Source: an uncultured Dehalococcoidales bacterium (GTDB lineage Bacteria > Chloroflexota > Dehalococcoidia > Dehalococcoidales > W498). From it: DNA of 30,278 nucleotides. The notes below the pieces were generated by a model. The model did no database searches and had not been told where the DNA came from. It worked only from the letters and a program-made list of their open reading frames with translations. Made by a program: the position numbers and the translations under genes. The stretch spans positions 1-30,278 of the forward strand of contig CAZMJZ010000001.1 of assembly GCA_964566845.1 (NCBI GenBank), in the 5' to 3' direction. Below, in pieces: positions 402-15,410 of the stretch (within the stretch, counting starts at the first letter, position 1; every line of letters begins with the position of its first letter).

Positions 402-716
402 ATGAAAGGGGTTCCGCAAGGAAGGTACACGAAGGAGTTTCGAGAGGAAGCGGTGAAACTGGTAACGGAAGAGCAGCTATCGTTACCGGAGGCAGCCCGC
501 CGGCTGTCTTTACCGCCATCGACGTTGGCGACTTGGGTGAAAGCCTGTAAGGCCGGCAGGCTTGGAGAGATAGGCAGGACGCAAAGGCCTCTGACCGAAA
601 TCGAGATGGAGTTGGCCCGAACGAAGAAGGAACTGGTGGAAGTGAAGATGGAGCGGGATATATTAAAAAAAGCAGCCGCGTACTTTGCGAAGGAGTCGCT
701 GCCCGGTACGCGATGA
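402..716 (+). CDS. IS3 transposase OrfA (HTH)
   Basis: YTKEFREEAVKLV...EAARRLSLPPSTLATWVK HTH followed by coiled coil MERDILKKAAAYF. Confidence 0.93.
   Translation: MKGVPQGRYTKEFREEAVKLVTEEQLSLPEAARRLSLPPSTLATWVKACKAGRLGEIGRTQRPLTEIEMELARTKKELVEVKMERDILKKAAAYFAKESLPGTR
665..672 (+). promoter_or_regulatory. -1 programmed frameshift site producing OrfAB
   Basis: A7G run; A-AAA-AAA in the OrfA frame; the -1 frame is open from 671 to the OrfB ATG at 713. Confidence 0.75.
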
Positions 717-1576
717 TGAAAGAACTGCGGCTTCACTACCCTTTACCGCTGGTGAGGCGAGTTTTAAGCGTGTCAGCCAGCGGGTACTATGCCTGGCTGG
801 GCCGGCCACTGTCGAGGTGGGCCCGGGAGGAAGCACGGCTGGAGATTGAGATTAAGGCGGCTCATAAACGGACAAGGCAGGTCTGCGGCGCCGAGAAGTT
901 ACAGTATGACCTAGCAGAGCATGGTATCAGGGTGGGCATTTGCCGGATCAAGCGCATCCGGAGAAAGCTCGGCATACGCTGTAAACAGAAGAGGAAATTC
1001 AAGGCCACCACCGACTCAAAGCATACCCTTCCGGTAGCCGAGAACATACTGGGTCAGCAGTTCAAGGTTGCCGCGCCGAATAAGGTGTGGGTGAGTGATA
1101 TAACATATGTGCCCACAGACGAAGGCTGGCTGTATGTTGCCGGCCATAAGGACCTTTTCACCGGTAATATCGTGGGCTACGCGATGGGAGAGCGGCTGAA
1201 AAAGAGTTTGGTTAGTCAGTCTTTGTTCCAGGCTGTGGCAGCCAAACGGCCGGCTAAGGGGCTGGTTCACCACTCTGACCGGGGCAGTCAGTATTGCTCC
1301 CATGAGTACCAGAGTATTCTTGACCGGTTCGGCCTGATCGCATCGATGAGCCGGAAAGGGAACTGTTTTGACAACGCTCCGATGGAGAGTTTCTGGGGAA
1401 CACTCAAGCAGGAACTGGTCCATAACCGCCGTTATAAAACTAGGCAGGAGGCGGTTCAGGACATCACGGAGTATATCGAGATATTCTATAACCGGCAGCG
1501 CCGACAGGCAAGACTCGGGTTCCTATCACCTGTGGCCTATGAACAAAGATTCTATGCAGGACTACTGGCAGTATGA
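713..1576 (+). CDS. IS3 transposase OrfB (rve/DDE)
   Basis: WVSDITY, HHSDRGSQY and DNAPMESFWGTLKQE motifs are intact. Confidence 0.95.
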   Translation: MMKELRLHYPLPLVRRVLSVSASGYYAWLGRPLSRWAREEARLEIEIKAAHKRTRQVCGAEKLQYDLAEHGIRVGICRIKRIRRKLGIRCKQKRKFKATTDSKHTLPVAENILGQQFKVAAPNKVWVSDITYVPTDEGWLYVAGHKDLFTGNIVGYAMGERLKKSLVSQSLFQAVAAKRPAKGLVHHSDRGSQYCSHEYQSILDRFGLIASMSRKGNCFDNAPMESFWGTLKQELVHNRRYKTRQEAVQDITEYIEIFYNRQRRQARLGFLSPVAYEQRFYAGLLAV

Positions 1577-1726
1577 AAGGTTTGGTGTCCACTATTGACA
1601 TCCGACCTCACTCCATGTAGACATCCCGATATCTATGCTTAGAATTGACGACACGAAACAGTGGCGGCAGCTGGATTTGGAAGCAGACCAAAACATTATA
1701 TATGAGCTATAATAGGCTTAAATCTA

Positions 1727-1936
1727 ATGGGAGGTATCGCATTTGTCACTTATGGATTAGGTTTAGTTATAGGTTTTGCAGTTGGTGTTGGAGTTGGTAT
1801 TTCTATTGGAAAGAAACAAAAACCTTGGTCTGAATTAACCACTGCAGAAAAGAAAGTAAGAATTATATCCATCTCTGCAGGTGGTGTGCTATTTGTAGCT
1901 TTGGTCGTGGTTTACATAGTTCGATTATCATCCTAA
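1727..1936 (+). CDS. Small membrane protein (about 2 TM)
   Basis: Two Gly/Val-rich hydrophobic segments around a basic KKQKPW loop; weak RBS. Confidence 0.65.
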   Translation: MGGIAFVTYGLGLVIGFAVGVGVGISIGKKQKPWSELTTAEKKVRIISISAGGVLFVALVVVYIVRLSS

Positions 1937-2050
1937 TGTTCGTGCAGTGGTGACGGTTCAATAATCATTCCTTTTTAGTATTGTATAATACCCATGGCAA
2001 CCACCTAACAAAAGGTTGCATCCGACACTGAAAATGCTGGAGGAGGTACT

Positions 2051-2305
2051 ATGGATAACTCAGTTGTATTGTCTGTTGGTGATGTCTTCCACTTGAGACG
2101 TGGCAAAGACCGCATTATCTATGCTGGTATGCCGTCAGACAACATCTATTCTATTGTGCAGAGGAAATGGGATTTCATGCCTTTGGGGTGTTGGGGGTTT
2201 GCCTGGAATCTGTTTTATCCAAGAGAGCAAAGCAAAATAAGGATAGATGGAGTAAATATATTAGTAGAGAAGGTGGCTCCCGATGAAATTAGATTGCGGG
2301 TATAA
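2051..2305 (+). CDS. Hypothetical protein, 84 aa
   Basis: Strong RBS GGAGGAGG just upstream; globular composition. Confidence 0.75.
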   Translation: MDNSVVLSVGDVFHLRRGKDRIIYAGMPSDNIYSIVQRKWDFMPLGCWGFAWNLFYPREQSKIRIDGVNILVEKVAPDEIRLRV

Positions 2306-2337
2306 CAATAAGCGATATGCAGTATAGAGGTATTTAT

Positions 2338-2514
2338 ATGAGGGAAATTGCTAAGTTGATAGCCTTTATCCTATTAATTATAGGAACTACTGGTCTTCTA
2401 GTGAATGAGTTTGTTACTGACTGGGGTAGAGGTATTACTATTACATTTGCTTGTCTCAATGTATTGGGACTCGTGCTCTTGATTTTTGCAGCTTGGATCA
2501 TGGGAAAACGCTAA
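2338..2514 (+). CDS. Small 2-TM membrane protein
   Basis: Two hydrophobic helices; AGAGG RBS favours ATG 2338 over 2317. Confidence 0.65.
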   Translation: MREIAKLIAFILLIIGTTGLLVNEFVTDWGRGITITFACLNVLGLVLLIFAAWIMGKR

Positions 2515-2538
2515 AGACAAGGAAGGATAACCAACATT

Positions 2539-2973
2539 TTGATATACGAGGATACGCCAAAATATGATCTATGGCTCAAACTCATGCTAGGCGGTGTATT
2601 AGCCCTTACTTTGATATTAGGGATAATTTTCATTTTCCAGGATAGTGAAGTAGCTTTGGCAATGTTTGGGGTAACGCTTTTTGACGCTCTATTATTTAAA
2701 GCAATTCTGCCACAGCGATTTCAGATATATCAGGACAGGGTAAGAATAGTGTTGGGTAGACCATTAGCCATAAATATCCCGTTTTCTAACATTCGAACCG
2801 TAAGGACGGTTTCAGCTCGCAAGGTTTTTGTTTATTGGGGGAACCGTTTTGCCACTTCAACACATATTATCGTGGAAATAGTTCGTAAGAAAGGCTTGGG
2901 TTTTGTTATATCACCAGCCAACGGAGATATGTTTCTAGAGCAGCTTAATCAGGCTCGTAATGCAGTATCCTGA
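2539..2973 (+). CDS. Membrane protein, 2 TM plus bacterial PH-like C-terminal domain
   Basis: TTG start after AAGGAAGGA; 2 TM then beta-rich IPFSNIRTV...VISPANGDMFLEQL. Confidence 0.65.
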   Translation: MIYEDTPKYDLWLKLMLGGVLALTLILGIIFIFQDSEVALAMFGVTLFDALLFKAILPQRFQIYQDRVRIVLGRPLAINIPFSNIRTVRTVSARKVFVYWGNRFATSTHIIVEIVRKKGLGFVISPANGDMFLEQLNQARNAVS

Positions 2974-3072
2974 AACGATGGTCTTTCAACACCCTTCGTG
3001 CTGTACGGGATTTATACCAAAGGATAGAATTCTAGTAATAACTGAGTGGTATTAAAAACGAGGAGGTCAAAA

Positions 3073-3255
3073 ATGGCTGGTGAAGACAAAGAAAATAAGC
3101 AAGCAGGATTAGGTAGTTTTGTATTTGTTGGGTGTCTTATCATTGGCGTAGGTGTTGGGATAGGGTTTGATCTTATGCCAGCAGCAGTTATCATTAGTTT
3201 TGGTATAGGTTTAATCGCTATGGGGATAGCACGCTATAAAACTGGTAAATGGTAA
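3073..3255 (+). CDS. Small Gly-rich membrane protein
   Basis: AGGAGG RBS before ATG 3073; two hydrophobic segments. Confidence 0.7.
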   Translation: MAGEDKENKQAGLGSFVFVGCLIIGVGVGIGFDLMPAAVIISFGIGLIAMGIARYKTGKW

Positions 3256-3390
3256 ATGATCTGCTTTAAATATACTCCTTACAATAATAATCTATTCCTC
3301 TGTGTAATAATCTTGCATTTTGTCTTATTAGTGTAAAACCCTTCAAACAGACGGGGAGATGGGGGGTTCGTCCAATTTGCATAATCCCTC

Positions 3391-3715: not shown

Positions 3716-4048
3716 TTATGGATAGAGGGTAAAAAGAGGGTTTGACCAAAGCTCCTCGCCGGCTGCTATCCCTTCCCTGGTGAGACGGCAGTACACCCGC
3801 TCCGGAGCCGGGGGATAGTTATCCTGTATTGCTGAAGGCTCAGTCTTCCCAGTTTCCTCAACCCATCCCAAGCGTTTCAAGTGACTAAAATACCGGGTGA
3901 AGCTGGAATATCTCATCTTTAGCAGCTCATATGGAATACGGCTGAGGTAGTATTCCAACCATGCACGATATTGCTCCTCGGTATAAGCGGGTTTGTCTTG
4001 CCTTACTCGCCTTTCCTCTTCCCGCTCTACTGCATCCCTATTTTCCAT
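3716..4048 (-). pseudogene. Probable C-terminal remnant of a winged-helix protein from a mobile element
   Basis: YSSFTRYFSHLKRLGWVEETG...RVYCRLTREG resembles a wHTH recognition helix and wing; the ATG lies inside the fdhD 3' end. Confidence 0.45.
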
Positions 4049-4835
4049 CAGTTACTACCCTCCACTCGTTGGTGTAGACATTCATCCTCTTTCCCCTAAC
4101 AAATCCTATAAGAGTTACTCCCAAATCATTGGCTAGATTCACTCCCAGGTCAGTAGGGGCAGATTTGGAAATAAGTATAGGTATACCTTTTCTAGTCACC
4201 TTCAGTAATATCTCCGACGAGATTCTCCCGCTGGTAACTATTATGCAGTCATTTGTAGGTATATCTGTCAGGATACACTCACCAAAGACTTTATCAATGG
4301 CGTTATGTCTGCCTATGTCCTCGCAGAAAACCAAGATGTCCTTCGTATCGCATAAGGCGGCGCTGTGAACACCACCGGTTGTCTGATAGTTCAGAGAGGC
4401 GTGCTGGAATTCCTTTACTAGGGCAAAGACTTCAAGGGGTGTTACCAAAGTCTGAGATTCTGTTCTTGACTGTCCCTGAACATCAGCCGCACTAATATAG
4501 GAAGCCCCTCTTCCGCACCCCGAAGTTATGAGTCGTTTGAATAAGAGTTCGCTAGCGTGCTGATTATCTTTCTCAATTTCCACGCGTACCACGCCTCTCC
4601 GGTCATCAACCACTATCTCCCTGATTTCGTCTTTACTTCTAAGTAACCCTTCGGAGGAAAGGAAACCGATAGCCAAGTAGTCCAAATTCTTTGGGGAACA
4701 AAGCAGAGTAACTAGTTCTTGGTCATTTAGGATGATGGTAAGGGGGAATTCTCTGGCAACCATATCCTCAATGTTACGTCCGCATCCCTCAGTAAGCCGC
4801 AATATAGGAATCTTCTCCACTTCATTCTTCGTCAT
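4038..4835 (-). CDS. fdhD: Formate dehydrogenase accessory sulfurtransferase FdhD
   Basis: EFPLTI...LAIGFLSSEG, TSGCG, TGGVHSAAL, EDIGRHNAIDK and TSGRISSEI motifs. Confidence 0.93.
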   Translation of the reverse strand: MTKNEVEKIPILRLTEGCGRNIEDMVAREFPLTIILNDQELVTLLCSPKNLDYLAIGFLSSEGLLRSKDEIREIVVDDRRGVVRVEIEKDNQHASELLFKRLITSGCGRGASYISAADVQGQSRTESQTLVTPLEVFALVKEFQHASLNYQTTGGVHSAALCDTKDILVFCEDIGRHNAIDKVFGECILTDIPTNDCIIVTSGRISSEILLKVTRKGIPILISKSAPTDLGVNLANDLGVTLIGFVRGKRMNVYTNEWRVVTDGK

Positions 4836-4870
4836 CTTGCCCTCTCCTCACATAGTGCTTCCTAATTCTT

Positions 4871-5197
4871 CTATGGCTTGCATTTCTCAAGGGCACCGTA
4901 GAAAGCCTTCCAGAAGGGGTCAACGATTGGATGTTCAAGCTTTTCTTCCTCTCTACCTTCTATCAGAATCATCCCCTTGCCTGGCTCAGCCAACTCGTCC
5001 CCAATGGAAGGCTTGATTCCCTTTTGAGACAGAGCTTCCACTACTCCTTGGGCTCTATGCTCCCGGCAAGCGATGATTAGTGTCCCTTCGCTAATGGAGG
5101 CATAAGGGTCAATGCCAAAATAGCTGTATATCTCTTCCACACAGCCCTCAACTGCAATTTGCTCTTTTTCCACCCTTACTCCCAAGCCAGCGGCCTG
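4871..5197 (-). pseudogene. C-terminal fragment of an AIR-synthase/HypE-like (PurM superfamily) protein
   Basis: QAAGLGVRVEKEQI...FGIDPYASISEGTLIIAC...HPIVDPFW; N-terminal domain absent; same frame as selD, just after its TAA. Confidence 0.75.
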
Positions 5198-5209: not shown

Positions 5210-6253
5210 TTACTCTACAGTAACCACTCCTTTCGGTTCATTGATAGCCTCTCCAATGATAGTTGCATCCTCCACACCCACTTGTCGCAGATTATTGAGT
5301 AGCAGTTCAGCTTTCCCAGGACTTAAACAGATTAGCAAACCGCCAGAGGTTTGAGGGTCAAAGAGGATATCTTGCATATAAATAGGCAATTCCTCATCGA
5401 TTTTCACCGCACCGGAGTAAAATTCCCGGTTCCGGTGTAAACCAGCCGGACATAGTCCCTGCTTAGCGAACTCGATTGCTTCTGGTAAGAACGGGATAGA
5501 AGTGAGTTGGATGATAATGCTTACATGACTGTTTTGAGCTAGCTGGACAGTGTGACCAAGGAGTCCGAATCCAGTGATATCAGTACAAGCATGGACGCCT
5601 ACCTTCTGCATGAGCTCCGACGCTTTGTCGTTTAAAGTTACCATACACTTCGTAAGCTTCGTTATCGTCTCTTCGTCAACCATTCCAGCTTTCAAAGCAG
5701 TGCTTATGATTCCAGTTCCCAGTGGTTTAGTAAATATGAGCTTGTCTCCTGCCTTAGCCCCCGCATTGGTCACCAGCCGTTTAGGGGACACAACACCTGT
5801 AACAGAAAGACCATACTTTAATTCGGTATCCTCTACACTATGTCCCCCAACCAGAGCCACTCCTGCCTCACCCATCTTATCCACCCCACCCCTGAGGATA
5901 TCCTTCAATACTGAGATATCCAGGGACTTCGTGGGAAAGCAGACCACATTCATTGCTGTCAGCGGCTTGCCACCCATAGCATAGACATCGCTCAATGCGT
6001 TGGCAGCGGCAATCTGACCAAACATGTACGGGTCATCAACTATGGGCGTGATGAAATCGATGGTCTGAATAATAGCCAACTCATCAGTTAGCTTATAGAC
6101 GCCGGCATTATCTAGGCTCTTCACGCCTCGAATCACCTTTGGGTTAGATATTAGCGGTAAACCGCATAAAGCCTCATTTAGGTCTCCCGGACCTAACTTT
6201 GAAGCTCAACCGGACCCACGAACACTTTCGGTTAGGCGAGGGTCTTTCCTCAT
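5210..6253 (-). CDS. selD: Selenide, water dikinase SelD, Sec-containing (347 aa, Sec16)
   Basis: Extending the tracked ORF upstream gives MRKDPRLTESVRGSG-U-ASKLGPGDL with TGA at 6206-6208; GGAGG RBS at 6266-6270; TIDF, AANALSDVYAMGG, TDITGFGLLGH and DPQTSGGLL motifs. Confidence 0.95.
6171..6205 (-). promoter_or_regulatory. Bacterial SECIS element of selD
   Basis: Directly after UGA: GCUUCA-AAG-UUAGGUC-CGGGA-GACCUAA-A-UGAGGC, i.e. a 7-bp upper stem, G-containing 5-nt loop and 6-bp lower stem. Confidence 0.88.
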
Positions 6254-6355
6254 ATCCGTTTAGTTCCTCCGTTACTGAAGTCAGAGATTAGCACCTGCTT
6301 CACCTGGCATTGTAGCATTCTCAGCATATGTAGTAAAATGTTTGGGGGTATAATT

Positions 6356-7747
6356 ATGGAAAGGATGTTCCGCCATCTTCCCAGTGTCGACCGGGTACTT
6401 TCTGACGAACGGGTCAGGCGACTTGAGCCAACCTATCCCCGCAGCTTGCTTCTAAACTTAATTCGGCAGCACCTGGAACACAACCGCCTATACATTACGG
6501 CGAGTAATCCATGCTCCACCTTTGATGAAATAGTGGATGCCGTTTGTGCTCAAGTTCGTGCCTTAGGAAACCCGAGCTTGCGCCCTGTAATAAATGCCAC
6601 TGGCGTTATCATCCATACTAATCTCGGTCGTGCCCCGCTTAGTAAAGAGGCAATAGCAGCTATAGATGCAACGGCCAACAGTTACTGCAATCTGGAGTTC
6701 GACCTTGACAGTGGCACGCGGGGCTCTCGTAGCACTCATATTGAGCCGTTGCTGTGCCAACTAACTGGAGCGGAGGCGGCACTCGTAGTTAACAATAATG
6801 CTTCAGCGGTGCTGCTAGCCCTGACTACATTAACTAAGAAGAAGGAGGTAATCATTTCCCGAGGTCAAGCGGTAGAGATTGGCGGTGGCTTCCGAATCCC
6901 TGATGTAATGCGCCAGAGCGGGGCGAAGTTAGTTGAAGTGGGAACTACCAACTGTACCTATATTGCTGATTATGAACTGGCGATTAACCCACGGACAGCA
7001 GTGTTAATGCGGGTTCATTCCAGCAACTTCAGGCTAATGGGCTTTACTCACTTTGTTACCCTCGATAAGTTGGTAGCGCTAGGTAACCGCTATGACCTCC
7101 CAGTATTTGATGACCTGGGTAGTGGCTGTTTCTTGGACACAACCAAGTTCGGACTTGACCCGGAGCCAATGGTGCAACAAAGCGTTGCCATTGGTGCCGG
7201 GCTGGTCTTCTTTTCTGGAGATAAGCTTATGGGTGGTCCTCAAGCCGGGATTATCGTCGGTAAGAAGCAGTTTATTGATAAGTTGAAGAAACACCCGCTG
7301 ACTCGGGCGGTGCGAATTGACAAGATAAGACTAGCTGGTCTGGTAGCTACATTAATTCACTACCTCAAGGGTGAAGCAATAGAGAAGCTACCGGTATGGC
7401 GTATGATTTCGGCACCACTGGAGGAGATCCACCAGCGCGCTAGAACTTGGTCTCAAGGCCTTGATGACCTGGCTCAGGTGGTAGATGGGGAGACTATGGT
7501 TGGGGGCGGCAGCCTACCTGAGGGCACCCTACCGACGAAACTCGTCGCCATTGGCAGAGAGGGTAACAGAAAAGACAAAAAAACGGCTCAGGCCTTAAGC
7601 CAAAGGCTGCAGAATCAGGAAATGCCCATCGTTGGGCGGATTAGTGGCAGTGTACTACTCCTTGACCCGCGCTCTGTCCTTCCTGAAGAGGACCAAATTG
7701 TGCTTCAAGCGCTCCGCAAGTTAGCTGTCATCTGCAGGCACACCTGA
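6356..7747 (+). CDS. selA: L-seryl-tRNA(Sec) selenium transferase
   Basis: [22 protein letters not shown]-like [18 protein letters not shown], and PLP-Lys motif [13 protein letters not shown]; GGGGG RBS favours start 6356 over 6338. Confidence 0.96.
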
Positions 7748-7773
7748 TGGTAGTAAAAGCGGCAAAAGGGTGT

Positions 7774-9627
7774 ATGATGTTTGTACTGGGCACTGCTGGG
7801 CATATAGACCATGGCAAATCAGTGTTAGTGTATGCCTTAACTGGGATAGACCCTGACCGGTTGCGTGAAGAAAAGGAGCGGGGCATGACTATAGACCTTG
7901 GCTTCGCGTGGCTAAAGCTGCCCAGTGGACGAGACGTAGGAATTGTTGATGTTCCCGGACATGAGCGGTTCGTTAAGAACATGCTGGCGGGAGTAGGTGG
8001 CATTGACCTTACCTTACTTGTTGTCGCTGCCAATGAAGGGGTGATGCCCCAAACCAGAGAGCACCTAGCCATTATAGACTTGCTTAGCATAAAAAGAGGA
8101 ATCGTGGTTATTGCCAAAAAGGATTTAGTGGATGATGAGTGGCTGAGCTTGGTCAAGATGGAGATAGAGGAGCTAATTGCTCCAACTAACTTATCCCAAG
8201 CCCCGATTATTGCCGTCTCGGCAGTAACTGGTGAGGGCTTATCCGAGTTGGTTTCGGCTATCGATTCTCTCATAAGCTCTATTGAACCGAGAAAGGATTT
8301 GGGGCGACCAAGGCTTATCATAGACCGAGTTTTCACCATCGCCGGTGCTGGCACAATAGTCACTGGAACATTAATTGACGGTTTGCTCACTGTGGGACAG
8401 GAAGTAGAGATTGTTCCCGCCGGTTTGAGGTCACGCCTACGAGGATTGCAGACGCACAAAGCCCCTATCGATGTTGCTATTCCCGGGAGTAGGGTTGCCG
8501 CCAATTTGGTTGGTGTTGCCACTTCACAACTACAACGTGGCGATGTGCTTACCCAGCCCGGCTGGTTAGTACCTACCACGATGCTCAGTGCCAAGCTCCG
8601 TCTACTTCCATATCTTCGTCGTCCCCTACGACATAATGCTACCGTGAGTCTTCACACCGGAGCCACCGAGGCAATGGCTAAAGTCCGTCTGTTAGAGAAG
8701 GAGGAGCTTCAACCGGGAGAGGTCACTTGGGCTCAGCTGTCACTGAATAAGCCCATCGCCGTAATCAACGGCGACTGCTTCATCATCCGTTCTCCTATGG
8801 AGACTCTCGGTGGTGGTGATATTGTTGATTCTCATGCTAAGCGGCTTCGCCGCTTTCGCCCGGCAATTATCCAAAGCCTGAGAGTGAGAGAGGAGGGCAC
8901 TACTGAGGAGATTATCACTGCGTTATTAGAGATAAAGCAACCTATGGAGCTACCCAACCTCCTCGCTCAATGCAATTTCCCCACCAGTGATTTTCGCTCA
9001 GCCCTACAAACCCTTATCCAGCAAGGGAAAATATTGGGAATAGGTCAGGAAGAACGCAGCCTTCTTTGGACTAGATTGGGATGGAAGCGGCTGACTAAGA
9101 ACGCTGCCACCATAGTCCAAGACTATCACCGAAGATTCCCGGCTCGCCCCGGCATGCCCAAAGTGGAACTAACTAGCCGTCTAAAGCTGGGAGTATACTC
9201 TGCGGTAGCTCTGCAAAGGCTTTCTGGAGAAGGTGCCTTAATTGAAAACAGCACAAGCGTTCGCCTTCCTGCATACCAGATAAAGCTAACTCCGGCTCAA
9301 CAGGCAAAGATAGATGGCTTCCTGCGCGCCCTGGCTCAAAACCCTTATTCTCCACCTGGGAGCCTTATCCCTGAAACCGATTTGCTAAATCTGCTCGTTG
9401 AGCAGCATAAGGTGGTTAAGGTGAGTAGCAGCGTGGTCTTTTCTACCTCAACCTATGATGAGATGGTAGAAAAAGTGATTAATCACATTAAGGAGCGGGG
9501 TAAGGTGACCCTTGCTGAAGTCCGGGATTTGTTTGATACCAGCCGAAAGTATGCCCAGGCTTTCTTGGAACATCTTGACGAAAGAAAGATAACCCGCCGT
9601 ATTGGTGATGAGCGAGTTCTTTGGTAA
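7774..9627 (+). CDS. selB: Selenocysteine-specific elongation factor SelB
   Basis: [27 protein letters not shown] and C-terminal winged helix [14 protein letters not shown]; start could be 7747, 7774 or 7777. Confidence 0.96.
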
Positions 9628-9643
9628 GAGACTTAATTATCGG

Positions 9644-9737
9644 CGGGAGCGCATGGGAGTCGAACCCACCGAAGACACTTCTGATGCCCCCCAACGGATT
9701 TGAAGTCCGCGAAGCTCACCGGGGCTTACCCGCTCCC
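9644..9737 (-). tRNA. selC: tRNA-Sec (UCA), CCA not encoded
   Basis: Anticodon loop CTTCAAA (TCA = 9701-9703), 6-bp D stem with CGGT loop, long variable arm, GGTTCGACTCC T-arm, discriminator G followed by CCG. Confidence 0.95.
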
Positions 9738-9827
9738 TGACCTTGAATATATCAAGTATATATTAACCAACATAAAGAGTACAATAATTGACTATCGTGA
9801 CTCGGTATTCACCAACCTGAGTGTTCA

Positions 9828-10046
9828 TTATTTCCGAGGTGGGGTGAGCACAAGGCGATACCCGTCTGATGCCACTTCTACCTTAATGTGATACCCCTTG
9901 CTCTGAGCCAGCCGGGACACGTTCTCCTTTGAGACCATGCTCTCAACAAGTACAGTGACTGGTTCATTTGGATTTTCCTCAATAGCCTTCTTAGTTCTTA
10001 CTACCGGTATGGGGCAGGAAAACCCCTGGACATCGACCTCAACCAT
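9828..10046 (-). CDS. TusA/SirA/YedF-family sulfur/selenium carrier (72 aa)
   Basis: VDVQGFSCPIPVVRTKKAI (CPxP); RBS GAAGGAGAGG; ATG overlaps the upstream stop codon. Confidence 0.9.
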   Translation of the reverse strand: MVEVDVQGFSCPIPVVRTKKAIEENPNEPVTVLVESMVSKENVSRLAQSKGYHIKVEVASDGYRLVLTPPRK

Positions 10047-10938
10047 TGTAGTCCTCTCCTTCTCCATAGCAGACTCCGCTCCATTGACAAAGGTGCTCCT
10101 TGAACACAGCCCGAAATTGATTAATGATTTGACTGACTCTAGTAGCCGGGGTAGCTTGGGCAAACTTTCCTGCCGTGCGGTTGGCTCGGGCAGCAATTAT
10201 TGCCGCTTCGTGCAGTTCAAGACCAGCATAGGCAAAGGCAGAAATCAGGCCGGTAATAGTATCACCTGTCCCGCCGATAGCTTCCAGCTCGGGCACATCA
10301 GGTTGTGTGATGGTAGCCAGAATATTCCCGTCGCGTACAACGTAGTCAACTGCACCCTTGACCAGTAACAGCCTGGCTGTGTTTCGCTGCTGGCAAGCAG
10401 TTGTTACCAGCCTTGGCGTCTGGGTAATATCGGTATCAAAGAGGTGTTGGTTGATATAAGCAGGGTGGGTGGCATCCGGGTCAGCGAGGAAGGCCATCTC
10501 AGTAGCATCCGGCGTGAAGATGTCAAATTGTGCCGCTAATCCGGCTGCCTTGGCGACATACATTGAGGCAGCATCGGCAATCATGATTGGCTTTCTGGGA
10601 CACCTATTAACGGATTGGCAGACCTTTCTCATTAGAGTTATATCAGGAAGGATATAGTGTAGTGCCAGTACTTCCGGAGAAAGCTCGGGCAAGTGGCGGG
10701 CAAGATAATCGTAGATTAATCGGCTCCCCTCACCCCTCCCCAAGTCCCCAGCAACTACTGTCTGGGGTGGTTCAAGGTTCAGATAACTGGTAGTTGCCAG
10801 TGCTGCACCAATCATGGCTCCAGTGCCCTGAGCACAGGGCAAATGGTATCCGTCAACGACTAGCAATCCATCCTCGCCTCTAGTCTCCCCTGTGATCAGG
10901 GGCAACCCTTTGATCGGAACCGTTCCCGCAATGAGCAT
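10039..10938 (-). CDS. Ribokinase-fold (YjeF-C/ThiM-like) protein of unknown function
   Basis: IADA, FTPDATE, LLVKGAVDYV and anion-hole IGGTGDTITG motifs; GGAGG RBS supports a start at 10938/10941. Confidence 0.75.
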   Translation of the reverse strand: MLIAGTVPIKGLPLITGETRGEDGLLVVDGYHLPCAQGTGAMIGAALATTSYLNLEPPQTVVAGDLGRGEGSRLIYDYLARHLPELSPEVLALHYILPDITLMRKVCQSVNRCPRKPIMIADAASMYVAKAAGLAAQFDIFTPDATEMAFLADPDATHPAYINQHLFDTDITQTPRLVTTACQQRNTARLLLVKGAVDYVVRDGNILATITQPDVPELEAIGGTGDTITGLISAFAYAGLELHEAAIIAARANRTAGKFAQATPATRVSQIINQFRAVFKEHLCQWSGVCYGEGEDYNG

Positions 10939-10940
10939 CA

Positions 10941-11474
10941 CTATTGATTTCCTCCATTCCAGAGGATAAGACACTCCTCTAGAGCCCGGTCCAGCATCAG
11001 AGCGCACAGAGTAAAGCCGATATCCCTTGGTCGCGGCGCTTGGGCGAGCGGTTTACCGATTAGCTCAGCGTGAAGGCGGGGAATATCAGGGCAGCCGCCG
11101 CCGGAGGTATTCACAATGATGCCGCTCTCCCTGTCAAACGTGAGTTTCATATTGCCTGCCCTGACCATCATCCAATCACCGAAATCAGTTACCTTGACAA
11201 TTTGTAGAAGTTCCGAGGTACCTATCTTGAGTGGGGCAATACCGACATAGGTGGCATCCCTCTCGTTAAGTAGCCGCTCGATGCCTAGCTTCTCTACCAG
11301 GTTTATCTCCACCGCCAAATCACAGCCCTTTCGTAATTCTGGTGGTGGTGCAACCAGCCTTACAGCATACCCACCACCCTTGAGTACCAACTCCGCCTTC
11401 ATAGCGTCTGGCACTTCCACAAACAGTATCAGCCCCCCACTGGCAAAGGATTGTTCTTTCTTGAATATTGGCAT
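10941..11474 (-). CDS. DUF3343-like protein with an additional Cys-containing C-terminal domain
   Basis: AELVLK...VAPPPELRKGCDLAV, then SGGGCPDIP...GKPLAQA...CALMLDRALEEC; GAGAGG RBS before ATG 11474. Confidence 0.75.
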   Translation of the reverse strand: MPIFKKEQSFASGGLILFVEVPDAMKAELVLKGGGYAVRLVAPPPELRKGCDLAVEINLVEKLGIERLLNERDATYVGIAPLKIGTSELLQIVKVTDFGDWMMVRAGNMKLTFDRESGIIVNTSGGGCPDIPRLHAELIGKPLAQAPRPRDIGFTLCALMLDRALEECLILWNGGNQ

Positions 11475-11484
11475 AAATAACCTC

Positions 11485-12561
11485 TCACGCTTTTTCTCTA
11501 CTGAATAGAAATCCAATCGCCAGACAAAAAGCCAGGCCTACGATTACCCCCCAAATGGTATAGTCACCAATGCCCTTCGGGCTTGAGGCAAGCCCGAAGT
11601 TGTGCGCAATGGCAGCCCCAACGATAAAGCCAATAACAGTTATCCCGGCATCAGCATTTCCCTCCCCGGAGAGAATTGTCTGGCGCAGGGGACATCCGCC
11701 AAGCAAGGTAGCAGTGAGACCAGCCAGGAGCATACCCAGGAAGTTCCACAGAAGGTTGTCATGTGCCACTGGCTGCCCCGCGAAACCCCAATGATAGAAA
11801 CCAGAGGCAAAGTTGCCCAAGGCATAGTTACTGATTATGGCTCCAATGAAAAAGGCAGCAATGCCACTAAAGAGATAGGTATCCCTGACCAGAATGAGGT
11901 CTCGCCACCCACCAACAAAGCACATCCTGGTCCTCTGCGCCAGAAAACCGAAACAGAGACCGATGAGGAGTGAAATCCACAGGGCAGCATGCATTGAGCC
12001 TGGTCCCTTGTCGCTGAAAAAGAGAAAGCCTGGTTTGAAGATAGCCAGAAGGAGCAGTCCAAACATAATCAGCGGCACCATCCAGCCGACAGCAGTTGGT
12101 ATCTTCAGCGAAGGGCCAAGGTTGAAACCCCGTCTGAGAAAGAAGATGCCAATTTCTGCTCCAGCCACCACCCCCGCCAGAGCCGTAATACCATTAAGGT
12201 CGCCACCGGCAAGGCGAAGAACTACCCGAATCGGGCAGCCGAGAAAGACCAGCGCCCCAATCATAAAAAAGACGCTTAATATAAAGCGGATTATTGGTGA
12301 CGAACCACCTCTGGACTTAAATTCACCGAAGGAATAGGCAGAGATAAAGGCACCCAGCAAAAGCCCCATAATTTCAGGGCGCAGGTATTGCACTACCGCA
12401 GCCTGGTGCAGTCCCAGACTGCCAGCAATATCACGATAAAAACAGGCAACGCAGATGCCCATATTGGGTGGGTTGCCCCACTTGGTTGCCAGGGTAGCCA
12501 GAGCCCCAAAGACTAACCCAGCGACAATAATCCTCACTCGGGGTGCCCAGAACCGCTGCAA
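11485..12561 (-). CDS. YedE/YeeE-family putative selenium transporter
   Basis: Multi-TM; GNPPNMGICVACF, LGCP, RMCFVGG and LGGCPLRQ motifs; TTG start after GGGGAGGAG. Confidence 0.88.
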   Translation of the reverse strand: MQRFWAPRVRIIVAGLVFGALATLATKWGNPPNMGICVACFYRDIAGSLGLHQAAVVQYLRPEIMGLLLGAFISAYSFGEFKSRGGSSPIIRFILSVFFMIGALVFLGCPIRVVLRLAGGDLNGITALAGVVAGAEIGIFFLRRGFNLGPSLKIPTAVGWMVPLIMFGLLLLAIFKPGFLFFSDKGPGSMHAALWISLLIGLCFGFLAQRTRMCFVGGWRDLILVRDTYLFSGIAAFFIGAIISNYALGNFASGFYHWGFAGQPVAHDNLLWNFLGMLLAGLTATLLGGCPLRQTILSGEGNADAGITVIGFIVGAAIAHNFGLASSPKGIGDYTIWGVIVGLAFCLAIGFLFSREKA

Positions 12562-12733
12562 GGTTGTCTCCTCCCTTTACTTATTGAGCCTCTTTTTAGC
12601 CATAAGTCTGTTTCATAACTTGACGCTCTCTTGATAAACCATGTATTTTAGCCTAGAATAGCTAGAGCGGGATTATACCATAAGTATTTTCTTAACACAA
12701 GACAAATTTCACTTATAGTATGGTGAGGATATT

Positions 12734-13624
12734 ATGAACCTGGACAATCTGAGAACCTACCTTGATGTGGTTAAGCTGGGGAGCTTCTCAGAGGTGGCTA
12801 AGAAACTGTCCATCAGCCAGCCTGCGGTTTCCTTTCAAATCCAAAAGCTGGAGCGTGACTTGGGTGTTCGCCTGCTTGACCGGAGTCAAAAGGTAATCAC
12901 CGTGACCGAGGCTGGCAAAAAGCTAGTCCGCTTCGCTGAAGTTGTAGAGAAAGAGCGAGACCGTCTCCAGTACGACCTTGACCAGTTGCGTGAAGAGGTG
13001 GCTGGAGACCTGATTGTTGCTGCCAGTACTATCCCGGGTGAGTTCCTGCTGCCAGCGATTTTAGGTGAATTCAAAGCACTACATCCTGTTGTGAGAGTCC
13101 AGATGGTGGTCTCTGATTCTCTTACTGTCATCGCAGGAGTGCGAGATGGAACCTACGATATGGGGTTCTGCGGCATCGCCCCAGAAGGTCAAGAGTTGGA
13201 GTCATTCAAGATAGCCGAAGATGAGATTGTTCTCATTGTGTTTCCGGAGCATCCCTTTGCTCGACGGGGAGAAATTTCTCTGGCGGAGCTGGACGGAGAG
13301 CCACTTCTCTTCCGTGAGGAGACTTCAGGCACACAGCAAAGCCTCCAAGCCCTCTTATCCAAAGCTGGACTTGACCTCAGCATGTGGGCACCGAATCTGG
13401 TTCTGGGCACAACCCAGGCTGTGGTCTCGGCGGTAGAGGTAGAGGCAGGGATTGCCTTTGTGTCGAATCTGGCTATTAAAAAGGGGTTAGCCCTTGGTCT
13501 GGTCAAACAAGTCACTGTTGATGGTTTAAGGTTGAATCGGGACTTCTACTGCATCTATCGGAAGGAAAGGATAGTTTCCCGACTGCTTGGTGAGTTCATC
13601 GCCTTCGTTCAGGCAAGGGCGTAA
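12734..13624 (+). CDS. LysR-family regulator (selenium-associated/CysL-like), divergent from yedE
   Basis: GSFSEVAKKLSISQPAVSFQIQKLE HTH; ASTIPGEFLLP and REETSGT substrate-domain motifs. Confidence 0.92.
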   Translation: MNLDNLRTYLDVVKLGSFSEVAKKLSISQPAVSFQIQKLERDLGVRLLDRSQKVITVTEAGKKLVRFAEVVEKERDRLQYDLDQLREEVAGDLIVAASTIPGEFLLPAILGEFKALHPVVRVQMVVSDSLTVIAGVRDGTYDMGFCGIAPEGQELESFKIAEDEIVLIVFPEHPFARRGEISLAELDGEPLLFREETSGTQQSLQALLSKAGLDLSMWAPNLVLGTTQAVVSAVEVEAGIAFVSNLAIKKGLALGLVKQVTVDGLRLNRDFYCIYRKERIVSRLLGEFIAFVQARA

Positions 13625-13788: not shown

Positions 13789-15410
13789 TCATTCCAGCCA
13801 CGCCTCCATATCCAGAATCATTGTCTTCAGCTGCTCCAATTCCTGTGGCGTAGCCTGCCATTATCCCCTGTCATGTGCCTCAAGCATCTTCTCTACCAAC
13901 TCCAGAATCGCGTACATGTTGTTTTCGGCAAGTCTACGCCACATCTCCTCATCAAACAACAGTGTCTCGGCAGCTTGGTCAAAGAGCCACTCCTTGACTT
14001 TTCCTGTCGTCACCTGTAAGCCGAGGAGGTACTCTATCCTCTGGGTGAGCTTTTGTGCCACGTGGAAATCGTGGCTCAGCATCCCGTCTATCCACTTCGG
14101 GTTAAGATCCCTGGTCCTTGTCACCCGGTCGATGACCTTTTCCACATCCTCTATCCCCAGGCTTTCTTCAGTGGTGTCAACGACCCATTGGTCAGGATAC
14201 TCGCCCCGCTTCTCCTTCACACTTCGAGCTAGGCCGCCAAAGAACTCATAATGATGGTCAAGGTTGGTAAACTCGTACTCTGTATTGCCACGCTCCTATG
14301 ATACTACATCAATTTGGCTAGTCAAGTTCTGGAATAGTTCCGGAACCCTGATGATTTGTCTACCCCAATAAGCGTGACTCATGCTGTCATCCTAGCTCGC
14401 TGCTAGTCCTTTCCCTTCTCGCTAATTGCTGCTCTACACTAAGGTCCGCATGGAGGTGGCATATTCGCTCTCCGAGAGGCCAAATATCCCAGCCTCGTCC
14501 AGTTCACCAAACTATCCTTCGCTTCCAGGTGGTTTTTACGGACGTAGTTGTGCTCGGGCGGTTCCTCGTCGCCCCAGCAGCCAGTTCGATAGCCTTGCTA
14601 AGAAGGTCAATATGAGTTCCGAAGAGGTCACGGAAGATGCCGCAAATGGTGATAACCGCATCAACCCTGGGTTTGCCCAGTTCTTCCGGGGGGATGAGTT
14701 CCAAGTCTTTGAACCAGGGGCTGGCTATGCTTACCAGCCTCACTTCCAGATAAGAGAGTATCTAGGCTATGGTATCTCCCCCTGTCTTTACCGTTTCAAA
14801 ACCCCAGAGCACCAGTCCCAGGCTTTCGGGATATCTTCTGTACTTCTCGTAAAATTTCTTGAACACCTTGGACGCAGTCTCTTCACCCACCCGCAAAGCA
14901 GTATGGGTTGGGATAAGCCTGGGGTCAAACTCATACATATTGTGGCCAACTGGGAAAATTCTAGGGGGTACTGATGGGGTCGCCATCCAGCTTCGTCAGC
15001 AGGTATTCTCCAGAGAGGTCTTTAAGCAAAGCACCAATCTCATCTGACTGGTCGATGCAGCTCTTAAGTTCGAGGATATAGAGCTTAGTCTCATTCGGGA
15101 TATCAACCTTGTTGCCCTTGAGCCATTTTGCCACCAAGTGCTGTTCTTCCTCGTCTATCTCTTGGGCAAATTTCGGGTTGTTGACAAACTCTCCTCGACT
15201 CTTTCCTCGGCGCTCGGCCAGAATCTCATGGAGGGAGGGAACCTCACGGCCAAGTCTGAGTGCCGAGGTTAGATATGATATCAAGGTCTCGTCCTCTAGT
15301 TTGTGGTCTATTACGTGCAGCCCTTTGTGTATGAGGCGCCTCTTCATACTGTAGAACAGCAATTTCAGTGCATCAACATCGCTTGCATCCAGGTTTAATT
15401 CACTGGCCTT
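13789..15410 (-). pseudogene. Degraded C-terminal half of a CobN/Mg-chelatase-H-like gene
   Basis: Fragments in several frames: KGLHVI, PTGHN-like FPVGHNMYEFDPRLIPT, VLWGFETVKTGG, LGKPRVDAVITICGIFRDLF, DHHYEFFGG, RTRDLNPKWIDGM, ENNMYA; many frameshifts and stops. Confidence 0.88.

Follow-up and report, generated by a model that had tools for sequence, protein, structure and literature searches.

A four-gene cassette beside the selenocysteine genes of an uncultured Dehalococcoidales bacterium is a candidate selenium supply system

Gene organization of the locus

The first 30,278 nucleotides (nt) of contig CAZMJZ010000001.1 from an uncultured Dehalococcoidales bacterium (assembly GCA_964566845.1) were analyzed; this whole stretch is called the window. 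Four closely spaced genes on its minus strand, namely yedE, a DUF3343-DUF8182 fusion gene, a kinase-like gene, and a tusA-like gene, lead toward selC, the gene for the selenocysteine (Sec) tRNA. A lysR gene diverges from them, and selA, selB, and selD lie nearby. An earlier reading made from the letters alone (the sequence-only reading) had proposed that the four genes form a LysR-controlled operon for selenium uptake and relay. In this study, the cassette was compared with its relatives in other genomes, and we consider it fairly probable that it is a dedicated selenium supply system, formed by four cooperating proteins, for the adjacent Sec machinery. The genes concerned are listed below.

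11485-12561, minus strand: yedE, putative selenium channel gene (358 amino acids (aa), TTG start; TIGR04112, PF04143)
10941-11474, minus strand: DUF3343-DUF8182 fusion gene (177 aa; PF11823 at residues 15-79, PF26554 at about residues 80-177)
10039-10941, minus strand: ribokinase-superfamily kinase-like gene (300 aa from GTG 10941; PF01256)
9828-10046, minus strand: tusA-like gene for a single-domain sulfur/selenium carrier (72 aa; PF01206)
9642-9737, minus strand: selC, Sec tRNA gene (ARAGORN, anticodon TCA; Rfam RF01852)
12734-13624, plus strand: lysR, gene for a selenium-metabolism-associated regulator, divergent from yedE (296 aa; NF040786)
5210-6253, minus strand: selD, selenophosphate synthetase gene (TIGR00476, 358 bits)
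6338-7747, plus strand: selA (PF03841, 473.6 bits)
7747-9627, plus strand: selB (SelB-specific winged-helix and beta-barrel domains)

yedE starts with a TTG codon at 12561, is preceded by the Shine-Dalgarno sequence GGGAGGAG, and ends with a TGA stop at 11487-11485. The fusion gene follows after a gap of 10 nt (ATG at 11474, TAG at 10943-10941). The kinase-like gene has two candidate starts, GTG at 10941 with a 1-nt overlap (TAGTG) or ATG at 10938 with a 2-nt gap; the GTG start agrees with a 300-aa database protein (P0001). Its TGA (10041-10039) overlaps the tusA ATG at 10046 by 8 nt (ATGGTTGA). tusA ends with TAA at 9830-9828, and a 90-nt spacer separates it from selC on the same strand. From yedE to tusA, the genes thus share one strand, neighboring genes overlap or are at most 10 nt apart, and an internal terminator is missing, the only terminator-like matches being weak ones inside the yedE coding sequence. 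These junctions predict a single transcription unit from yedE to tusA.

The Sec tRNA scored 71.6 bits on RF01852 (cutoff 47), and its TCA anticodon was assigned by ARAGORN. selA and selB (6338-9627) are convergent with selC, with selD on their far side. SelD, too, is a selenoprotein: the Sec of its active-site loop, GSG-U-ASK, corresponds to an in-frame TGA at 6208-6206, and the N-terminus continues upstream, so that an open reading frame (ORF) finder returns only the portion downstream of the Sec codon. Because selD carries this in-frame Sec TGA, the host decodes Sec. The sequence-only reading had described the four genes, their order, strand, and tight coupling, selC 90 nt further on, and a divergent LysR with selAB and selD adjacent, and the locus is organized in this way.

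Recurrence of the cassette and the families of its proteins

With the kinase-like protein as query, 38 loci, each from a different species, were retrieved from a genome collection, and the window proteins were mapped onto them. Counts out of 35 refer to the loci in which the relevant flank exists. In 35/35 loci, the kinase-like gene is immediately preceded by the DUF8182 gene; the fusion gene is in turn immediately preceded by yedE in 31/35. A TusA-family gene follows the kinase-like gene in 32/35, and 18 of the fetched loci have a divergent LysR. In this comparison of gene neighborhoods, which the sequence-only reading had proposed as a check, the cassette is conserved as a unit. Because the same cassette recurs in 31 of 35 related loci, its arrangement is far from chance. 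The loci are labeled Dehalococcoidia, Syntrophaceae/Smithella, Thermoanaerobacterales, and Thermanaeromonas, with single contigs labeled Calditrichales and Deltaproteobacteria. A second, more distant branch, reached via fusion proteins, has the four components in the order yedE-tusA-fusion-kinase. This order occurs in Desulfovibrio piger, a cultured species with a complete genome, and in three other distant contexts.

For DUF8182, phmmer returned only 92 clusters at 50% identity among 1.84 billion representative proteins. Most of these clusters are DUF3343-DUF8182 proteins of 170-200 aa. Five clusters, of 514-588 aa, combine DUF3343, DUF8182, and the kinase-like domain in a single polypeptide, and about 40 such fused proteins were found in a follow-up search; P0263, P0338, and P0356 are examples of this fusion. 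The kinase-like domain is also fused to TusA, in P0042 (370 aa, 29 member sequences) and in a 402-aa ORF of locus L019. Following the usual logic of Rosetta-stone fusions, the three soluble proteins would work as a complex, since fusions join them. Judged from these sequences, the kinase-like gene and DUF8182 are obligate partners. Selection, rather than shared ancestry alone, would maintain the association, because the gene orders and the positions of selC differ and several fusions are independent.

The neighbors of the cassette point to selenium. A Sec-machinery gene lies within the fetched flank in 21 of the 38 loci. As far as the fetched flanks show, the outcome that would have spoken against the sequence-only reading, four genes found usually in genomes lacking selD, is therefore not what is seen. 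The gene directly after the cassette is selD in 12 loci and also in L046, a distant context in which SelD (8411-9325) comes directly after the kinase-like gene. The Sec tRNA gene adjoins the cassette in 9 loci. A Sec-containing formate dehydrogenase (FDH) adjoins it in L011 (about 600-3374) and L024 (1131 to about 4300, minus strand); the alpha subunit has a twin-arginine translocation (Tat) signal and the selenocysteine motif HCARI-U-HS, and FdhB-like, NrfD-like, and FdhE-like genes lie alongside. Eight loci have this FDH cluster ahead of yedE. In L045, GrdA (8657-8989, minus strand), the glycine reductase selenoprotein A, stands beside the fully fused version of the cassette. The ORF calls of this GrdA and of the L046 SelD begin just past their Sec codons.

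Two loci, L008 and L015, differ in composition. The TusA position is taken by a two-domain YedF (TIGR03527, 223.5 bits in L008; cutoff 110), the long form made of TusA plus a DsrE-like domain. No yedE is adjacent; it is replaced by a pair of HGD-D and BcrAD/BadFG activase ATPase genes (L008, 5418-7441; L015, 8888-10965). Lin et al. list this pair among selenium-linked neighbors (PMC5322559), and these loci may represent an alternative, reductive selenium-processing module. The selenium tie that the sequence-only reading had claimed for the four-gene unit is supported by the family matches, in which every marker open to scoring is of the selenium-specific family (seleno_YedE, LysR_Sec_metab, and, in variant loci, true YedF), and by the neighborhood of selD, selC, selAB, Sec-FDH, and GrdA.

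Further genes were noted around the cassette. In the window, fdhD, for a formate dehydrogenase maturation sulfurtransferase, lies downstream of selD in the 4038-5185 region (minus strand). A 104-aa ORF (4871-5185) between selD and fdhD had no Pfam match and looks like the tail of an AIR-synthase-type protein. In D. piger (CP189842.1), the cassette is closely preceded by two HesB-like genes (Fe-S_biosyn, PF01521; locus L043, 4230-5054, minus strand). The selenoproteins noted in Methanococcus include a HesB-like protein (PMC11097638).

YedE scored 476.2 bits on the curated equivalog model TIGR04112 (cutoff 200). It stayed below both thiosulfate-transporter models for TsuA/YeeE (NF052577 and NF041049; 53.9 against 400 and 19.6 against 645). 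Homologues from four other lineages scored 458-519 bits on TIGR04112 and are likewise of the selenium type, not TsuA. Five cysteines, C37 and C40 (CxxC), C109 and C290 (GCP), and C214 (MCF), are conserved in 30-32 of 32 homologues and occur in both internal repeats of the protein.

These scores bear on the question of whether the cassette moves sulfur instead, as a thiosulfate or persulfide import-and-relay system like YeeE/YeeD (TsuA/TsuB) whose closeness to the sel genes is accidental. Sequence hardly separates sulfur from selenium chemistry, YedE shares the Pfam family PF04143 with YeeE, and members of the TusA and DUF3343 families are also known from sulfur contexts and from organisms lacking selD (PMC5322559). 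A sulfur role is nevertheless improbable. YedE and its four relatives match the selenium-type model and not the TsuA models, and selD, selC, selAB, Sec-FDH, GrdA, and LysR_Sec_metab recur beside the cassette in several phyla and gene orders; no cysteine desulfurase, Dsr, or Sox genes recur among its neighbors in the fetched loci. The YeeE-YeeD mechanism and structure are known (PMC11073785), and the likeness to that system is a partial one. Both have a PF04143 membrane protein with conserved pore cysteines and a tightly linked TusA-family partner, the CPxP cysteine of which takes the substrate at the cytoplasmic exit (here by analogy). Distinct from YeeE, the window protein belongs to the YedE clade and has five conserved cysteines instead of three. 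The DUF3343-DUF8182 protein and the kinase-like enzyme have no counterpart in YeeE/YeeD, and the context is one of selenocysteine genes, not of sulfur assimilation.

The TusA-like protein scored 58.6 bits on PF01206 (gathering score 28.6) and has the motif GFSCPIPV (CPIP) at residues 8-15. It stayed below the YedF models TIGR03527 (58 against 110, N-terminal domain only) and NF008242 (21.6 against 79). In the fusion protein, the DUF3343 domain (Se_S_carrier) scored 51.6 bits on PF11823 (gathering score 25) at residues 15-79; the PF26554 (DUF8182) assignment is the precomputed annotation of an identical protein, P0121. Three cysteines of the fusion protein are invariant in the alignment: C51 (GCD), C128 (GGGCPD(I/V)P, GGGCPDIP in the window), and C157 (TLCALM). 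C51 is invariant in 33 sequences and follows a PPP-x-L-R-x-G segment, and C157 adds to the cysteines that the sequence-only reading had named. Together, the soluble carriers provide four invariant thiols. The motifs from which that reading had built a cysteine relay (CxxC, GCP, and MCF in the membrane protein; CPxP, GCD, and GCPD in the carriers) are real and conserved.

In an AlphaFold2 model of the fusion protein (predicted local distance difference test (pLDDT) 80), C128 and C157 are each placed at a helix start. Nothing significant was found for this protein in the PDB by sequence search or Foldseek, and its N-terminal domain is predicted to have a generic ferredoxin-like fold only. DUF8182 was also considered as a diverged TusA or DUF3343 domain. 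This idea was rejected, as the profile-profile alignment covered 9 columns, V(N/D)xxGxxCP, with a probability below 1%. The likeness of DUF8182 to TusA, a strand, a Gly loop, Cys-Pro, and a helix, is local and serves as a lead only.

The AlphaFold2 model of the kinase-like protein (pLDDT 90.7) has a ribokinase-like fold, which bears out the fold that the sequence-only reading had assigned to the third gene, and the phosphotransfer site is intact. The motifs TPDxxE (144-147), KG, and GGTGD (222-226) are invariant in 37/37 diverse members of the family. The same 37 members share the family-specific invariant motifs GDxGxGxGS, FHY, ADAxxMYxAK, and LADxxAxHPxY, and invariant polar residues line the pocket (D65, H94, Y95, D122, K130, D153, H158, Y161, and R254). 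At least 90% conservation was found at 56 positions, most of them invariant and none of them Cys. C35 and a C-terminal CxWSGxC were considered as a cysteine relay through this protein. They are invariant in the Dehalococcoidia group only and absent from the Desulfovibrio-type and fused members, and were rejected as a general feature. Because it has no universally conserved Cys, the kinase-like protein would not itself be a member of the relay; the relay proposed earlier therefore stands for YedE and the carriers and not for this enzyme.

Databases label homologues of the kinase-like protein NAD(P)H-hydrate dehydratase. The best Pfam match, Carb_kinase (PF01256, 44.6 bits, over the gathering score), and the best structural match, the TM0922/YxkO dehydratase group, would also suit a housekeeping NAD(P)HX dehydratase (NnrD, metabolite repair) carried along as an operon passenger. 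This reading is very hard to credit. The protein scored 32.1 on the NnrD equivalog model TIGR00196, against a cutoff of 129.85, and distant members of the family also fell under the cutoff (33.4 in D. piger, 26.2 in the fused form). The best Foldseek match, the TM0922 dehydratase (E 6e-7), has a template modeling (TM) score of 0.58 at 13% identity, and the NAD(P)HX dehydratases TM0922 and YxkO match hardly better than PfkB, pyridoxal kinase (PdxK), ThiM, and ThiD. There were 55 PDB matches at E <= 0.001, and the 50 listed are all kinases or dehydratases of the ribokinase superfamily. By sequence, only the C-terminal nucleotide-binding region aligned to solved structures, to ThiM, both in a PDB sequence search (E 0.09) and in a profile search (E 1e-4). 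The protein does share with NnrD, the YjeF C-terminal domain, and YxkO the ribokinase-like fold, a GxGD anion hole, TPxxxE (NxxE-type), and the KG motif, but its N-terminal 100 residues are unaligned and it has invariant motifs of its own. Unlike NnrD, it is obligately linked to cysteine carriers, its gene being always beside or fused with DUF3343-DUF8182 and TusA. From the sequences and the model, we conclude that this protein, rather than being a true NAD(P)HX dehydratase, is in all likelihood an active phosphotransferase from a separate family.

Instead of feeding SelD, a phosphotransferase of this kind might work with the carriers to produce a small metabolite or cofactor, phosphorylated or containing selenium, that serves for instance in the maturation of FDH or another molybdoenzyme. 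To our knowledge, all characterized members of the ribokinase superfamily phosphorylate small molecules, which counts for this alternative, as do the invariant polar pocket, suited to a small-molecule ligand, and the FDH operons, fdhD, or fdhE beside the cassette in the window and eight loci. We regard it as unlikely, since the fusions join protein carriers, not biosynthetic enzymes, adjacency to selD or selC is commoner than adjacency to FDH, and the cassette also occurs beside GrdA and without FDH.

Transcription and regulation

Three promoters were predicted around the cassette.

12672-12716, minus strand: yedE promoter with two LysR-type dyads (alignment of 11 intergenic regions)
12631-12659, plus strand: lysR promoter, TTGATA-17-TAGAAT (promoter scan, 10/12 matches)
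9755-9784, minus strand: selC promoter, TTGTAC (9784-9779), 18-nt spacer, TATACT (9760-9755)

The LysR of the window scored 255.6 on NF040786 (LysR_Sec_metab; cutoff 250). The Syntrophaceae LysR, 29% identical to it, scored 290.7 bits, and the divergent regulator is thus LysR_Sec_metab in two phyla. When the 11 intergenic regions of LysR-linked operons were aligned, a common order emerged: ATAAG-N5-CTTAT, a -35 element TTGnnn, tTAAG-N6-CTTAT, and an extended -10 element TGnTAtAAT. In the window, dyad 1 is ATAAG (12716-12712), 5 nt, and TTTGT (12706-12702), and is partly degenerate. It is followed by the -35 element TTGTGT (12700-12695), by dyad 2 with TTAAG (12695-12691), 6 nt, and CTTAT (12684-12680), and by the extended -10 element TGgTATAAT, ending at 12672. 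A single copy of the motif YTTATGNTANAAT is present in the window, against an expectation of 0.06. Each of the 10 loci that have this LysR type likewise contains one copy, at the same place, and no others were found among 43 loci. The dyads fit the T-N11-A type of LysR sites, and the target gene is divergent, as at LysR-regulated promoters. The predicted operator dyads cover -51 to -15 of the yedE promoter, and their conservation supports the LysR control proposed by the sequence-only reading. The regulator resembles HrsM in its family model (NF040786), its divergence from selenium genes, and the T-N11-A dyads in its target region. Its predicted target is a selenium-handling operon, whereas the reported targets in Methanococcus are operons of Cys-isoform hydrogenases (PMC11097638).

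The lysR promoter stands back-to-back with the yedE promoter and overlaps its footprint, and both of its hexamers are conserved across loci on the opposite strand. A leader RNA or riboswitch in the yedE 5' region was considered, as conservation extends past the -10 element (ATTtTA ... atCAAg) and apparent compensatory stems were seen. It was rejected: the conservation is that of the lysR promoter on the opposite strand (-10 TAaAAT, -35 TTGATx, 17-nt spacer), the putative stems are out of register between loci, and Rfam gave no match in the yedE 5' region. On the other side of lysR, four short ORFs in different frames (13861-15362, minus strand) match the C-terminal half of CobN/Mg-chelatase (profile 568-1081), and their sequence identifies a frameshifted cobN pseudogene right after lysR. 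An IS3-type insertion sequence lies at 402-1576 (plus strand) of the window; ORF 402-716, which may be its orfA, overlaps the start of the integrase-core ORF 713-1576 (Pfam rve, HTH_21).

Because dyads centered near -44 and -22 would occlude RNA polymerase, LysR most likely shuts the operon when selenium is sufficient. Repression of this kind fits Methanococcus maripaludis, in which the yedE transcript rose by 5.3 log2 under selenium starvation (PMC11097638). The opposite sign is expected if the cassette serves in selenium protection or storage, sequestering or exporting an excess, with LysR inducing it at high selenium. Cysteine-rich carriers could equally sequester reactive selenium, the transport direction of YedE and the sign of LysR regulation are compatible with either, and the M. 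maripaludis yedE mutant had no clear defect in uptake (PMC11097638). We nevertheless think a protective role improbable. In M. maripaludis, yedE is induced by selenium starvation, not by excess (PMC11097638). The cassette is tied to selD, selC, and selenoprotein genes, not to efflux or methylation genes. Loss of FdhT/FdhU, the Campylobacter homologues of YedE/YedF, reportedly lowers FDH activity, a result to which PMC5322559 refers and which also counts against protection.

The sequence-only reading had extended the operon toward selC. In the window, selC is on the same strand and no terminator was found between tusA and selC; the fold of the spacer is no more stable than that of shuffled sequences (z = -0.68). 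Ahead of selC, the window, L010, and L011 share a conserved element, TTGnnC-17/18-TATACT, within a spacer that is otherwise not conserved. A separate promoter for selC is therefore probable in this lineage; read-through from tusA is possible, so that at most read-through is left of the proposed extension. In six Syntrophaceae loci (L027, L028, L029, L030, L032, and L034), selC lies inside the operon on the same strand; in L027 (7344-7436), it starts 5 nt past the yedE stop and ends about 28 nt ahead of the DUF3343-DUF8182 start codon. It is this Syntrophaceae arrangement alone that argues strongly for co-transcription of selC.

Proposed selenium route and its meaning

In the selenium supply system that we favor, YedE, a cysteine-lined membrane channel of the YeeE/YedE family, would admit inorganic selenium species. 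The CPxP cysteine of the TusA-like protein would take the selenium at the cytoplasmic face, by analogy with thiosulfate transfer between YeeD and YeeE. The DUF3343-DUF8182 protein, the ribokinase-fold enzyme, and TusA would form a soluble processing unit that spends nucleotide triphosphate and makes a protein-bound form of selenium, a selenotrisulfide or perselenide, which would be handed to SelD. The selenium-type LysR would bind the two dyads over the yedE promoter. Context gives strong support to a selenium role of the cassette. We infer the chemistry, in which ATP would drive the capture of selenium on cysteines of the carriers before hand-off to SelD, and likewise which species is transported, that ATP is used, in which order transfer proceeds, that SelD receives the product, and in which direction regulation works.

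For the soluble unit, we tentatively suggest that the kinase-fold, DUF3343-DUF8182, and TusA proteins could be an ATP-dependent selenium-activating system that acts by Se-OH phosphorylation and, with YedE, gives strict anaerobes a dedicated high-affinity route to SelD. A more speculative guess, drawn by analogy, is that the kinase-like enzyme might drive an ATP-dependent dehydrative capture of selenite on the four carrier thiols. This guess was made because the nearest characterized relatives phosphorylate a hydroxyl and then eliminate phosphate, and because the capture of selenite by thiols proceeds through successive dehydrative condensations and requires four thiols. It was made also because the hosts are strict anaerobes, most of which are not known to contain glutathione.

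Several points weigh against a dedicated supply system. The evidence for the proteins, and for their tie to SelD, is one of sequence and context. The window LysR passes the NF040786 cutoff narrowly (255.6 against 250), the TusA-like protein of the window matches neither YedF model, and DUF8182 has no recognizable structural or sequence relative, so that its role is a guess. The loci were retrieved via the kinase-like protein, and their counts are conditional on that gene, not on YedE; many of them are related Dehalococcoidia metagenome-assembled genomes and are not independent. E. coli-type YedE/YedF systems are without the kinase-like and DUF8182 partners. In M. maripaludis, deletion of yedE had no clear effect on transport (PMC11097638).

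YedE, YedF, DUF3343, and LysR_Se were tied to selD by comparative genomics in 2015 (PMC5322559), and the prior selenium link on which the sequence-only reading had drawn is indeed in that work. The cassette resembles the YedE/YedF (FdhT/FdhU) candidates described there in having the same YedE family, LysR subfamily, DUF3343, and a TusA-like protein beside selD and selAB. It is also distinct from them. A term search of that study's text gave no kinase-like gene, its one mention of a kinase being unrelated, and no DUF8182. In the cassette, DUF3343 makes up the N-terminal half of a longer protein, the TusA-like protein has a single domain, and the genes form a fixed four-gene cassette with fusion variants. 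Literature searches for DUF8182 and PF26554 returned no papers, and a kinase-like partner of YedE/YedF is not described in the selenium and YeeE/YeeD papers that were term-searched. What is new here is the kinase-like gene and DUF8182 as partners of the known YedE/YedF candidate system.

The label NAD(P)H-hydrate dehydratase is probably wrong for thousands of entries of the kinase-like family in databases. According to a 2026 review, a specific high-affinity system for selenium transport has yet to be identified in prokaryotes (PMC13188914). The cassette is a strong, testable candidate for the dedicated bacterial pathway by which trace selenium is specifically taken up and safely passed to selenophosphate synthetase. 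It offers a small, defined, and experimentally tractable set of proteins for this unsolved step of selenium metabolism, and its occurrence in the cultured D. piger, with a complete genome, opens the hypothesis to direct genetics.

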